Sequence record: PZ502562.2
Direction: 5' to 3' (one strand)
Length of the DNA: 38,725 nt
Source of the DNA: a phage
Shown here: positions 32,625 through 35,494 of the stretch, piece by piece
Numbering within the stretch: position 1 is the first letter of the stretch
Layout: each line of letters begins with the position of its first letter
Notes under the pieces: generated by a model
The model's database searches: none
Told to the model about the DNA's origin: nothing
Seen by the model: the letters and a program-made list of their open reading frames with translations, nothing else
Position numbers and translations under genes: made by a program

Positions 32625-34466
32625 ATGGCTAACGTAATTAAAACCGTTTTGACTTACCAGTTAGATGGCTCCACTCATGATTTTAATATCCCGTTTGAGT
32701 ATCTAGCCCGTAAGTTCGTAGTGGTGACTCTTATTGGTGTAGACCGTAAGGTCCTTACGCTTAATACAGACTATCGCTTTGCTACACGTACTACCATCTC
32801 ACTGACTAAGGCTTGGGGTCCATCCGATGGCTACACGACCATCGAGTTACGCCGAGTAACCTCCACGACCGACCGCTTGGTTGACTTTACGGACGGCTCA
32901 ATCCTCCGTGCGTATGACCTTAACGTTGCTCAGATTCAAACGATGCACGTAGCGGAGGAGGCGCGCGACCTGACTGCTGATACAATCGGTGTCAATAATG
33001 ACGGTCACTTGGATGCCCGTGGTCGGCGTGTAGTGAACGTTGGTAATGCGGTAGACCGCGGGGATGCGGTTAACTTGGGGATGCTTCAAGATTGGGACAA
33101 CTCCGCCCTGAATCAAGCAGACCGTTCGGAGAAGGAGGCTGATAGGGCAGAGGCCGCTGCGTCCCAAGCTGACAGTAGCGCTGCTAAGGCTCTTTCTTCT
33201 GAGAAAAGTGCTTCCACAAGTGCTACTAACGCACTCGCTTCGGAGAATGCAGCAAAGGCATCACAAGTGGCTGCGGCTGGTAGCGCAAGTTCGTCAGAAC
33301 AATCTAAGAACGAGGCAAATGCCTACAAAGAGGCCGCGCAAACTGCCGCGGACACCGCGTCCAACCATGAGGATAAAGCCAAGGAGTACATGGAGAGGGC
33401 CGAGGCTGTCGCCTGCTCCAAGGAGAATCCGGTATCTGAGATAACGTTCACTACTGGTGGGTCATTAGGTTCTGAAAGGGCCAAGGTCCGGGACACAGTT
33501 ACCAACCGCATCTACTACTGGATTGGGACCTTCCCCAAGGTAATACCTGAAAACTCCGTAGGAGAAGACCTTATAAAGGCAGATGGTGACCTGTGGGATT
33601 CTCTGCAAAACCCTAACGGTAAGTGGGTAGACGCGGGTAACAGCGTCCCTGCACTAAGAACCACATTAGGAGAAGGAGTACCCTTCAAGTACGAGACGTA
33701 CCCGAAGGATAACCTCAACGCCATTACTGAGCGTCAATCCAATAGGGTGCGTGTGGCTACGTGGAACATTTGGGGAGCAGGTGCTCAAGGTAACTTTGGT
33801 TCACTGGGTTCTGCCGATAGGATAAAGGCCCTACAGGAGCGATGGCTCAACCAAAAGCTAGACTACGTAGGTCTACAGGAGTGCTATTTCAACGACACAT
33901 TCTACCCATTCTCCATGTATACAATAGGTTCTCTCCACACTGCATTCGTACAGACGTGCGAACCTTATGAGTCTGGAATAACCATCCTGGATTTCGACTA
34001 CGGTACGGGATGTGTAAGCAGTGGCGCTGACGTGAAGATGTCTGGAGGAATCTATAAGGACAGCATCGGAAGCTCAGTGGATAAGGAGCGCCGAGCGTGG
34101 ACTCGCACAGAGACTACCATTAGGGGCCGTAAGTACGTAATATACAATACACATCTCAGCTATGATAGGGCGCGATTCACTCAGCAGCAGTCAGAGTTGA
34201 ACAACCTCCTATTAGCAGAGACTAACCCACAAGTAATCGTAATGGGAGATTTCAACCACGACGACATCACGTTGTTTCAGCCATTACTTGATGCCGGATG
34301 GTCTATGGGCCAGAACAAAGAGTTTAATACTAACAACACCGGCGGAAAATGGCACATTGATAATATACTGTACAAAGGGTTCTCTAAGAGAGTTGATAGA
34401 GGAACTCAGGACGCACCAAGTTCTCTATCTGACCATAAATTATTCTATGTGGAACTGGAGGTATAA
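32625..34466 (+). CDS. 17: Chimeric tail fibre: T7-like tail-attachment N-terminus, Ala/Ser-rich shaft, C-terminal EEP (endonuclease/exonuclease/phosphatase)-fold domain
   Basis: 613 aa. Residues 1 to about 150 match T7 gp17; the rest is unrelated to the T7 shaft and tip. C-terminal motifs in EEP order: VATWNIWG, DYVGLQECY, VIYNTHLSYD, VIVMGDFNHDD, SDHKLFYVE. Confidence 0.9.
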   Translation: MANVIKTVLTYQLDGSTHDFNIPFEYLARKFVVVTLIGVDRKVLTLNTDYRFATRTTISLTKAWGPSDGYTTIELRRVTSTTDRLVDFTDGSILRAYDLNVAQIQTMHVAEEARDLTADTIGVNNDGHLDARGRRVVNVGNAVDRGDAVNLGMLQDWDNSALNQADRSEKEADRAEAAASQADSSAAKALSSEKSASTSATNALASENAAKASQVAAAGSASSSEQSKNEANAYKEAAQTAADTASNHEDKAKEYMERAEAVACSKENPVSEITFTTGGSLGSERAKVRDTVTNRIYYWIGTFPKVIPENSVGEDLIKADGDLWDSLQNPNGKWVDAGNSVPALRTTLGEGVPFKYETYPKDNLNAITERQSNRVRVATWNIWGAGAQGNFGSLGSADRIKALQERWLNQKLDYVGLQECYFNDTFYPFSMYTIGSLHTAFVQTCEPYESGITILDFDYGTGCVSSGADVKMSGGIYKDSIGSSVDKERRAWTRTETTIRGRKYVIYNTHLSYDRARFTQQQSELNNLLLAETNPQVIVMGDFNHDDITLFQPLLDAGWSMGQNKEFNTNNTGGKWHIDNILYKGFSKRVDRGTQDAPSSLSDHKLFYVELEV

Positions 34467-34467
34467 C

Positions 34468-35277
34468 ATGACCAACAAACTACTAGTAAACACTGAGGTA
34501 GCTCTCGCGGATGGGGACGCTCTATCCCTAGAGATGGTTCGTATGCGAAACGAACTGACAATCGCTAAGGCGGTTCAGGGTGAGACCCATTTCTACAAGA
34601 GTGTTAAGGATATGGGCATTACCGGGAAGGTTACGCTACTCTCCATTGCGAAGAGGATGCGCCGACGCTCTGTCCTCATCGTGAGTGTGTACGGAGGGAC
34701 CAGTGATGGTCCTGACCTTCCGCTCCCTTACTTCAACTCAGGGACTCCTGTTTATATGTCCGGCATACTTTGGGCGTACAAGATGGAGGATGAGAAAAAA
34801 GTCTATTTCGAGTGGCGTAACGAGAACATGACTGCCCGGTGTAACTATAACGCACACGTTGAGGACAAGGTTACTCCGTGGGTGTTCGATATGCTACCTA
34901 AGATGAATGCTACGGCTGGTCCGGGATACTGGCAGAACAGGATGTCAAATATTTGGGTTCCGGGGACGTATTACTTCACTAGAGACCAGATGAACGGCTT
35001 CACCGATAGACCTGTACTTGGAGGGGGCTACTTGGAGGTAATGAATGCAGGTAACTCACCTACTTCTGACAGAAACTATGTATTCACCTTAAACACTTCG
35101 GACCAACACAAGTGGTCCCGTCAAAATGATGGGGATTGGAGAATCATCCCTGTGTGCTTCACCGCAGCCGTACATGACAGCCAGATGCGCGTGGGTGATA
35201 TGAAAGTGGCAAGCAATGGTATGCTCCATATCAGAGTAAGCTCCAGTAAAGTGGGCCAGATTGCCACCGTTGGATAA
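34468..35277 (+). CDS. Hypothetical 269-aa protein downstream of the tail fibre; no counterpart in T7
   Basis: ATG 34468 lies 1 nt after the gene 17 TAA, with RBS GGAGG at 34457-34461. The ORF track shows a longer version from 34288 overlapping gene 17. Aromatic/Asn/Gly-rich, no signal peptide, no recognisable catalytic motif. Confidence 0.75.
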   Translation: MTNKLLVNTEVALADGDALSLEMVRMRNELTIAKAVQGETHFYKSVKDMGITGKVTLLSIAKRMRRRSVLIVSVYGGTSDGPDLPLPYFNSGTPVYMSGILWAYKMEDEKKVYFEWRNENMTARCNYNAHVEDKVTPWVFDMLPKMNATAGPGYWQNRMSNIWVPGTYYFTRDQMNGFTDRPVLGGGYLEVMNAGNSPTSDRNYVFTLNTSDQHKWSRQNDGDWRIIPVCFTAAVHDSQMRVGDMKVASNGMLHIRVSSSKVGQIATVG

Positions 35278-35290
35278 ATCAGGAGGTATC

Positions 35291-35494
35291 ATGTTATCCT
35301 TGGATTTTAATAATGAAGTCATCAAGGCTGCCCCCATTGCGGGGGCCGTTGGTGCTGACGCCACGTCTAGACTCATTTGGGGACTCTCCCTGAACGAGTG
35401 GTTCTACATTGCCGCTATCGCCTACACAGTGGTTCAGATTGGTGCCAAGGTAGTCGATAAGATGATTGACTGGAAGAAAGCCAATAAGGAGTAA
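35291..35494 (+). CDS. 17.5: Class II holin
   Basis: 67 aa from ATG 35291 with RBS AGGAGG (MLSLDFNNEVIKAAPIAGAVGADATSRLIWGLSLNEWFYIAAIAYTVVQIGAKVVDKMIDWKKANKE); one hydrophobic segment. Confidence 0.92.
   Translation: MLSLDFNNEVIKAAPIAGAVGADATSRLIWGLSLNEWFYIAAIAYTVVQIGAKVVDKMIDWKKANKE

Follow-up and report, generated by a model that had tools for sequence, protein, structure and literature searches.

What does a gene do that lies between the tail fibre gene 17 and the holin gene 17.5, where bacteriophage T7 has none? The question is raised by a phage DNA of 38,725 nucleotides (sequence record PZ502562.2), the whole of which is called the window here and which is a nearly complete T7-like genome with its genes in canonical order. 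An open reading frame (ORF) of 269 codons plus stop occupies positions 34468..35277 of its plus strand, immediately behind gene 17. The analysis described below points to the probable, if far from certain, conclusion that the ORF product is one of two separately translated chains of a receptor-binding spike, in which it would be the second subunit and form a trimeric tower on the Exo_endo_phos (EEP) domains at the end of the gene 17 protein (gp17).

Gene 17 (32625..34466, plus strand, 613 aa) ends with a TAA codon at 34464-34466, a single C (34467) precedes the ATG of the ORF at 34468, and the frame remains open to the TAA at 35275-35277. The Shine-Dalgarno (SD) sequence of the ORF, GGAGG (34457..34461, plus strand), is found 6 nt 5' of this ATG, inside the final ..L-E-V codons of gene 17. 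A program-made list of ORFs starts the frame further upstream, at TTG 34288 (329 aa), but the ATG at 34468 is taken as the real start because all homologues align from there. The holin gene 17.5 (35291..35494, plus strand), which begins at ATG 35291, has its own AGGAGG and is recognised by Pfam Phage_holin_2_2 (E 1e-31), forms the downstream edge where the conserved T7-like backbone resumes. Every structural detail given in the first-pass annotation, which had described a 269-aa ORF 1 nt past the gene 17 stop with its own ribosome-binding site, was confirmed from the sequence. The direct order of gene 17 and holin gene, which it had stated for T7, is also that of Escherichia phage EG1, the nearest sequenced relative. 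The lack of an adapter domain or catalytic motif was upheld by Pfam and NCBIfam searches, and no signal-peptide-like N-terminus was seen by eye; the richness in Trp, Tyr, Asn and Gly proved only mild (W 2.6%, Y 4.5%, N 6.7%, G 8.2%).

The ORF is a real gene and not a chance frame, given its end-to-end match to PHROG 22156, its homologues in 18 distinct loci and the detection of the homologue of phage CR8 by mass spectrometry. The match to the PHROG profile, which represents a rare, uncharacterised family, covers residues 5-269 of the ORF and positions 4-269 of the 273 of the profile (E 8.6e-88). Protein homologues share 22-52% identity with the ORF, and tblastn matches in phages CR8, CR44b and CrRp3 extend over 98-99% of its length. 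A word-indexed search of 5.8 billion proteins gave 9 clusters of the family, 76 relatives came from an exhaustive comparison of a profile with 1.84 billion cluster representatives, and IMG/VR contained only four phages with the family, all already in GenBank. No nucleotide match was obtained by blastn with the ORF against 50,697 phage records, or with the gp17 C-terminal region plus the ORF against 5,426 E. coli genomes, and Pfam and NCBIfam assigned no family to the ORF or to any of 28 relatives. An origin as an unrelated mobile or selfish gene, also considered in the first-pass annotation, was indicated by no search and was discarded.

As regards the virion, the GenBank record of Citrobacter phage CR8 annotates gene 17.01 with 'matches in mass spectrometry analysis; structural' and 'no significant sequence database hits', and its product has been called a 'putative tailspike', for which Phyre hinted at a likeness to P2, the adsorption protein of PRD1 (Toribio et al. 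2014, PMC4038870). The gp17.01 proteins of CR8 and CR44b are full-length homologues of the ORF (43-45% identity, E 1e-60 to 1e-63), encoded likewise between genes 17 and 17.5 of a T7-like phage, after an EEP-tipped gp17 and with an equally tight junction. Nevertheless, CR8 has a Caroctavirus backbone whereas that of the window is Teseptimavirus-like, its homologue is only ~45% identical, its gp17 lacks the long T7-type coiled-coil shaft which the window gp17 keeps, and its gp17.01 is characterised only by mass-spectrometry detection and the Phyre hint (PMC4038870). Reading across from the CR8 record, the ORF product is most likely present in virions, and the ORF adds a new member, ~45-50% identical, to a family previously noticed and loosely named putative tailspike.

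The genomic context links the ORF with one particular partner. In all of the 18 distinct loci, the gene directly upstream on the same strand ends in the Pfam EEP domain. These loci comprise the window and L010 (the numbers are those of our own locus list), CR8, CR44b, CrRp3, L011, Cronobacter phage B1, Salmonella Kuttervirus Se-J, Drexlerviridae phage BEK2, L012/L013, L014, L015, L016, L019, L020, L021, L024, L025 and L026. In the reciprocal search, starting from the EEP domain, the three new homologues examined all preceded Pfam-less members of the ORF family (E 5e-109, 1e-57 and 2e-40). The anchors of the EEP proteins vary by lineage, comprising the T7 tail domain, P22 Head_binding, Tail_spike_N and short or unknown N-termini, while the N-terminus of the ORF family keeps one conserved form across all partner lineages; therefore, the only common partner region is the EEP domain with the ~25 residues preceding it. 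Moreover, the pairwise identities of EEP domains and ORFs are correlated (Pearson 0.88, Spearman 0.48, 55 pairs) and the two proteins fall into the same clades.

The junction between the two genes is tight, ranging from a 4-nt overlap to a 1-nt gap in nine of the 11 loci measured. In the window, the SD sequence of the ORF is encoded by the conserved ..(E)LEV codons at 34452-34466 (CTGGAGGTATAA), and it is also contained within the terminal codons of the EEP protein in CR8, B1, CrRp3, L012, L016 and L019, so that the C-terminus of the EEP protein and the downstream ribosome-binding site are constrained together. A gp17-ORF fusion through programmed frameshifting or read-through was considered and rejected, as the geometry of the junction differs between loci (-4, -1, 0, +1, +10 and +11 nt) and there is thus no conserved recoding site. 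Nor was a natural fusion of EEP and tower found among the 76 representative relatives.

Both genes also appear to have arrived together. The DNA identity of ~92% with phages EG1 and Yanou ends at 33025 (gp17 residue ~134) and resumes at 35275-35291, from which it follows that gp17 residues 135-613 and the entire ORF were acquired as one host-range cassette (33026..35274, plus strand), the 3' edge of which is the ORF stop codon. No fewer than seven types of phage backbone carry the cassette: T7-like, SP6/K1-5-like, P22-like, lambdoid prophage, Kuttervirus, Rtp-like siphovirus and SU10-portal-type. Invariable synteny, co-divergence, tight junction and joint acquisition give strong support to the core proposal of the first-pass annotation, a partnership between the ORF and the new EEP tip of the fibre.

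The P22-like locus L015 (2802-4813) provides a compact example of the module, with the P22 head-binding domain joined straight to EEP (395 aa) in replacement of the beta-helix endorhamnosidase, and the ORF homologue next to it. Behind gp16 and Mnt/Arc, the EEP-ORF pair occupies there the place of the P22 tailspike, a clean exchange of domains made by nature that could be put to use in engineering; when the complete E. coli genomes were searched for a cassette of this P22-like type, only the edges of the head-binding domain were matched. Another arrangement was observed in Salmonella phage Se-J, where a 1612-aa hypothetical protein, gp100 (L004 6783-11621), follows right after the EEP+ORF pair in the Kuttervirus tailspike cluster, and may be a branched tailspike protein scaffold.

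The partner itself, gp17, begins with a T7 tail-adapter domain (aa 1-155, 32625-33089), continues with an Ala/Ser/Glu-rich shaft and a weak Tail_spike_N match (aa 270-311, 33432-33557) and ends in the Pfam EEP domain (aa 378-604, 33756-34436), over which its AF2 model is confident. The seven canonical EEP catalytic residues (N381, E419, H510, D542, N544, D603 and H604) are invariant in 10 partners that share 22-46% identity, which argues that the enzyme is under selection to remain active. A single-sequence search of the PDB with the EEP domain gave no match, but a family profile did. The Foldseek and profile neighbours are TDP2, neutral and bacterial sphingomyelinases, uncharacterised bacterial EEPs, CNOT6L and nocturnin, all Mg-dependent phosphodiesterases, among which no clear subclass emerged that would assign a substrate class.

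As for the ORF protein, its AF2 monomer model, built from a 10-sequence alignment, is of moderate confidence (pLDDT 74.5, pTM 0.64), with residues 1-37, which contain a helix at 19-35, of low pLDDT and two beta-rich regions after them. The N-terminal segment (aa 1-37, 34468..34578), which is the proposed docking element, includes a conserved strand-like motif of the form hydrophobic-G-x-D-hydrophobic-x-hydrophobic at aa 7-13, then a G16/S18 turn and an amphipathic helix (aa 19-35) with 4-3-4-3 heptad spacing, where positions 19, 23, 26, 30 and 33 are large and hydrophobic in 83-97% of 30 members. Beta-rich domain 1 (aa 38-138, 34579..34881) is knob- or tower-like, and domain 2 (aa 139-230, 34882..35157) contains the most conserved motif of the family, SNIWVpGtYYF..q...FTD.P. 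A C-terminal extension (aa 231-269, 35158..35274) carries a conserved RVGDMK motif.

When a profile of 28 members was compared with the PDB, domain 2 was matched to tower subdomains of receptor-binding proteins (RBPs) of Gram-positive phages: NF5 gp17 (9M7X, E 1.9e-13), the P68 fibre (6IAB/6IAC, 2.6e-7), the phi11 RBP (5EFV, 0.002) and 80alpha gp61 (6V8I, 0.0047). All of these matches are to the C-terminal tower subdomains of the targets and span ORF residues ~130-222, the stretch that holds the most conserved motif. The likenesses of the ORF model include Pa193 gp47 and phage K gp144, and its BFVD matches are tail fibre proteins. The remote-homology and structure-prediction check suggested at the outset yielded a tower-type RBP match. 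The knobs of R2 pyocin PA0620 (6CL6/6CU2) and of Pa193 gp47, in contrast, have no sequence-level match to the ORF; in pyocin fibres the knobs precede a lipopolysaccharide-binding, lectin-fold foot, which the ORF lacks. An internal duplication of the two beta domains was also considered, but found no support in the sequence.

The wider family is embedded in fibre proteins. Where its distant relatives are fused to other domains, these belong without exception to fibres (Peptidase_S74, Gp53-like_C, Phage_RBD_prop, Phage_fiber_2, End_tail_spike and Phage_tail_fib) and in no case to EEP, and a phi11-type propeller platform is carried by P0044-46, which are distant relatives only. Short members of 215-228 aa are without the last ~40 residues, which makes the C-terminal segment an optional extension, and in longer members it is replaced by fibre modules (Peptidase_S74, Gp53-like_C). 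The fused forms that were checked, namely two with S74, one with Gp53-like_C and the Pfam-less 367-aa P0031, also follow an EEP gene. A C-terminal S74 domain is present in the BEK2-type relatives QGH76734, P0036, P0038, P0039 and P0041 and absent from the 269-aa ORF. GenBank notes of BEK2 QGH76734 (L005 4995-6203) that it 'binds to the polymannose O-antigen accelerating adsorption of T5 phage'. This note probably stems from the similarity of its C-terminal S74 domain to T5 pb1 and is probably misleading, because the N-terminal 220 residues belong to the ORF family and follow an EEP fibre. Furthermore, the motif of domain 1 (..L..LGL...T...I...P.NS.., or more fully ..sL..LGL....T...I..amP.nS..) was observed in tandem, 2-5 times, in Pfam-less fibre proteins of 500-1100 aa, and looks like a widespread fibre repeat domain that has yet to be modelled.

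In the architecture that we propose, adapter and shaft would come from gp17, together with three EEP phosphodiesterase domains at its C-terminus in the role of the phi11/P68 'platform'. The ORF would supply a short axial helix, which would form a triple coiled coil amid the platform domains on the three-fold axis, and after it two all-beta tower subdomains directed outwards from the virion. Translational coupling would provide both chains in about equal amounts, and the tower would clamp the three EEP domains, which would not trimerise by themselves, into a spike, while probably also contacting a glycan of the cell surface. A precedent for the axial element is found in phi11, where a short triple helix on the three-fold axis joins platform to tower (PMC4901313). 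We infer the docking of a separate chain through its N-terminal strand and helix, together with a trimeric state, a distal position and glycan binding. Of the 31 substitutions between the ORFs of the close relatives CrRp3 and L011, one falls in residues 1-40 and 11 in residues 231-277; such N-terminal conservation and C-terminal variation would fit, as weak evidence, a constrained docking end and a freer distal end.

The proposed spike departs from its models in several ways. In the stem-platform-tower RBPs phi11 Gp45 (5EFV), P68 gp17 (6IAB), 80alpha gp61 (6V8I) and NF5 gp17 (9M7X), the tower lies in the same chain, after the platform, whereas in the window the domain with tower-type profile homology is on a separate polypeptide, the partner has EEP as its globular domain instead of a five-bladed propeller, and the phages infect Gram-negative Enterobacterales; its trimeric state and axial position are predictions. 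A split platform and tower would be a new version of known RBP architectures, and not a categorically new system. Several points weigh against the proposed spike. In phi11 and P68, receptor binding has been assigned to the platform, the tower having no known role (PMC6795507). Confidence in the monomer model is no more than moderate, and the model shows an unstructured N-terminus. The reading of two tower subdomains depends, for domain 1, on the fold, since hhalign detected no sequence similarity between domains 1 and 2 (probability 0.1%). Finally, the family is conserved fairly evenly, with no hypervariable tip, which is unusual for a specificity adhesin and would also fit an assembly factor.

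Other roles for the ORF have to be weighed on the same evidence. It could be an independent second RBP in a branched system, such as KP32 gp37/gp38, G7C gp63.1/gp66 or CBA120 TSP1-4, with gp17 as the scaffold, a different receptor and a wider host range. In those systems, as in DT57C LtfA/LtfB, an adapter-less second virion protein is encoded just behind an adapter-bearing RBP and carried by it, and the ORF resembles this second protein in being, by way of CR8, a virion protein with an RBP-like fold, in having no adapter of its own, in directly following the gene of an anchor-bearing RBP and in having a partner with Tail_spike_N, typical of branched tailspikes. However, the RBPs of branched systems assort independently and each has an enzymatic or binding body, whereas the ORF has neither an enzymatic domain nor a hypervariable region, is never separate from the catalytic domain of the first protein and co-diverges with it. 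Moreover, no T4 gp10-like branching domain was found in gp17, where only T7_tail, Tail_spike_N and EEP were matched, and partners lacking Tail_spike_N (CrRp3, L015, L020, L021 and L024) still have the ORF. We therefore consider a branched second RBP unlikely, though not far-fetched. A dedicated assembly chaperone of the EEP tip, similar to Tfa or gp38, required for gp17 to fold or trimerise and at most adventitiously retained in the particle, we hold to be distinctly improbable. Obligate pairing, co-divergence and even conservation are what would be expected of a cognate chaperone, some chaperones do remain on the fibre (Mu Tfa, T2-type gp38), and the slot after the fibre gene is one that houses fibre chaperones: in Cedecea phage Yanou, a close Teseptimavirus relative, a 175-aa 'tail fiber assembly protein' is annotated between gene 17 and the holin gene (L018 6435-6962). 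Nevertheless, the ORF shows no BLAST similarity to the Yanou protein, nor any similarity to the Tfa, gp38, gp57 or S74 chaperone families in Pfam, NCBIfam and PHROG, its domains are homologous to integral parts of mature RBPs, the BEK2-type relatives end in an S74 intramolecular chaperone of their own, a sign that they are fibres in need of folding and not chaperones, and the CR8 homologue was identified in CsCl-purified virions.

The least probable of the roles considered, to which we give very little credence, is that of an immunity protein or inhibitor keeping the EEP phosphodiesterase inactive in the cytoplasm until release. It would fit the obligate pairing and nothing else. The resemblance of the ORF to Ugi is one already known for the tower fold of RBPs (PMC4901313), neither homology to a known inhibitor family nor a cytoplasmic role was found, and the family is embedded in fibre proteins, with a homologue in CR8 virions. 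An extracellular substrate is indicated by the fact that EEP replaces the depolymerase body of tailspikes, for instance after the P22 head-binding domain, and the host links to phosphodiester O-antigens set out below point the same way. To our knowledge, phage depolymerases generally require no inhibitor. Thus, among the roles that the first-pass annotation had left side by side, that of a structural virion component at the tip, of the tower or adhesin type, is favoured by the CR8 mass spectrometry, the RBP tower fold and the fibre fusions, while the folding chaperone and the EEP inhibitor lose ground for want of Tfa-type similarity and because the domains are integral to mature fibres. As a separate observation, genes for fibre partners that move with swapped fibre tips seem to land generally in this slot, between gene 17 and the holin gene.

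If the ORF and EEP do form a receptor-binding spike, what would it act upon? Three phages of Citrobacter rodentium, from two subfamilies, carry the EEP+ORF pair, and CrRp3 shares with CR8 essentially only these two genes, named 'putative lyase' and 'minor structural protein' (PMC7412075). The O-antigen of C. rodentium is of the E. coli O152 type (bioRxiv 10.1101/2025.03.14.643335), the backbone of which contains an alpha-GlcNAc-1-phosphate-6-Glc bridge (PMC10609480), and such sugar-phosphate-sugar bridges are present in only six of 182 E. coli serogroups, O84, O152, O160, O172, O173 and O181 (PMC9912281). Among the 5,426 complete E. coli genomes, a pair of the L014 type was found in a single one, strain 1919D3, within an argW prophage remnant beside gtrABS-type genes, and the galF-gnd cluster of this strain has an annotated O173 flippase and polymerase, plus a protein of the Stealth family, which we take to consist of hexose-1-phosphoryltransferases. 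Two independent lines thus lead from the pair to hosts with this rare class of O-antigen, which suggests that it may be an O-antigen phosphodiesterase spike, whose EEP domain would cleave the sugar-phosphate-sugar bridges, as far as can be judged from sequences and hosts. They are two data points, and the prophage is degraded. In addition, one homologue lies on a phage contig within a Salmonella Newport assembly, and BEK2 was isolated on E. coli K514, which is believed to be a rough K-12 derivative. We put forward only tentatively that EEP+ORF constitutes a hitherto unrecognised class of two-chain tailspikes in which a phosphodiesterase of O-antigens, or of other surface phosphoglycans, replaces the usual beta-helix glycosidase or lyase, specifically opening O152, O173 and C. 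rodentium hosts. In such a tailspike, the EEP domains, as monomers, would depend on the trimeric tower of the second chain for being assembled and aimed.

Beside this, it was observed that the pair adjoins a gtrA/gtrB/gtr-specific O-antigen glucosylation operon in 1919D3 (L022 11016-13725) and in L026 (4640-7349), both lambdoid prophage contexts; a spike gene is there linked with genes for seroconversion, by which the target of the spike would be masked. As a module, and in that respect alone, the pair would have a functional analogue in gp12 of phi29, a virion spike that cleaves a phosphodiester-linked surface polymer. This teichoic-acid-degrading tail appendage is a beta-helix with an autocleaved C-terminal chaperone, and thus differs in fold from an EEP domain with a separate tower chain, as well as in type of host and in substrate. 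No description of EEP or phosphodiesterase tailspikes, or of the EEP+ORF gene pair, came up in the literature searched; the phages of a 2025 C. rodentium phage paper are unrelated to those discussed here, and a survey of E. coli tailspikes and serogroups does not mention the six phosphodiester serogroups.

The Gram-negative glycan depolymerases that we know of are glycosidases, lyases and esterases on self-trimerising beta-helix or SGNH scaffolds. In this context, a phosphodiesterase platform combined with a tower on a separate chain would, if true, represent a new architectural solution in the form of a portable cassette, as well as a new enzymatic route through O-antigens with phosphodiester bonds in their backbone. 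For annotation and engineering, the rule would be that both genes are to be moved together when phages are retargeted, and the enzyme could serve as a serogroup-specific reagent for O152, O173 and related O-antigens. The pair is also a tractable system for studying the role of RBP tower domains, a question that is open for phi11 and P68. Finally, such a spike would account for the fact that exactly these two genes are common to three unrelated phages of C. rodentium.

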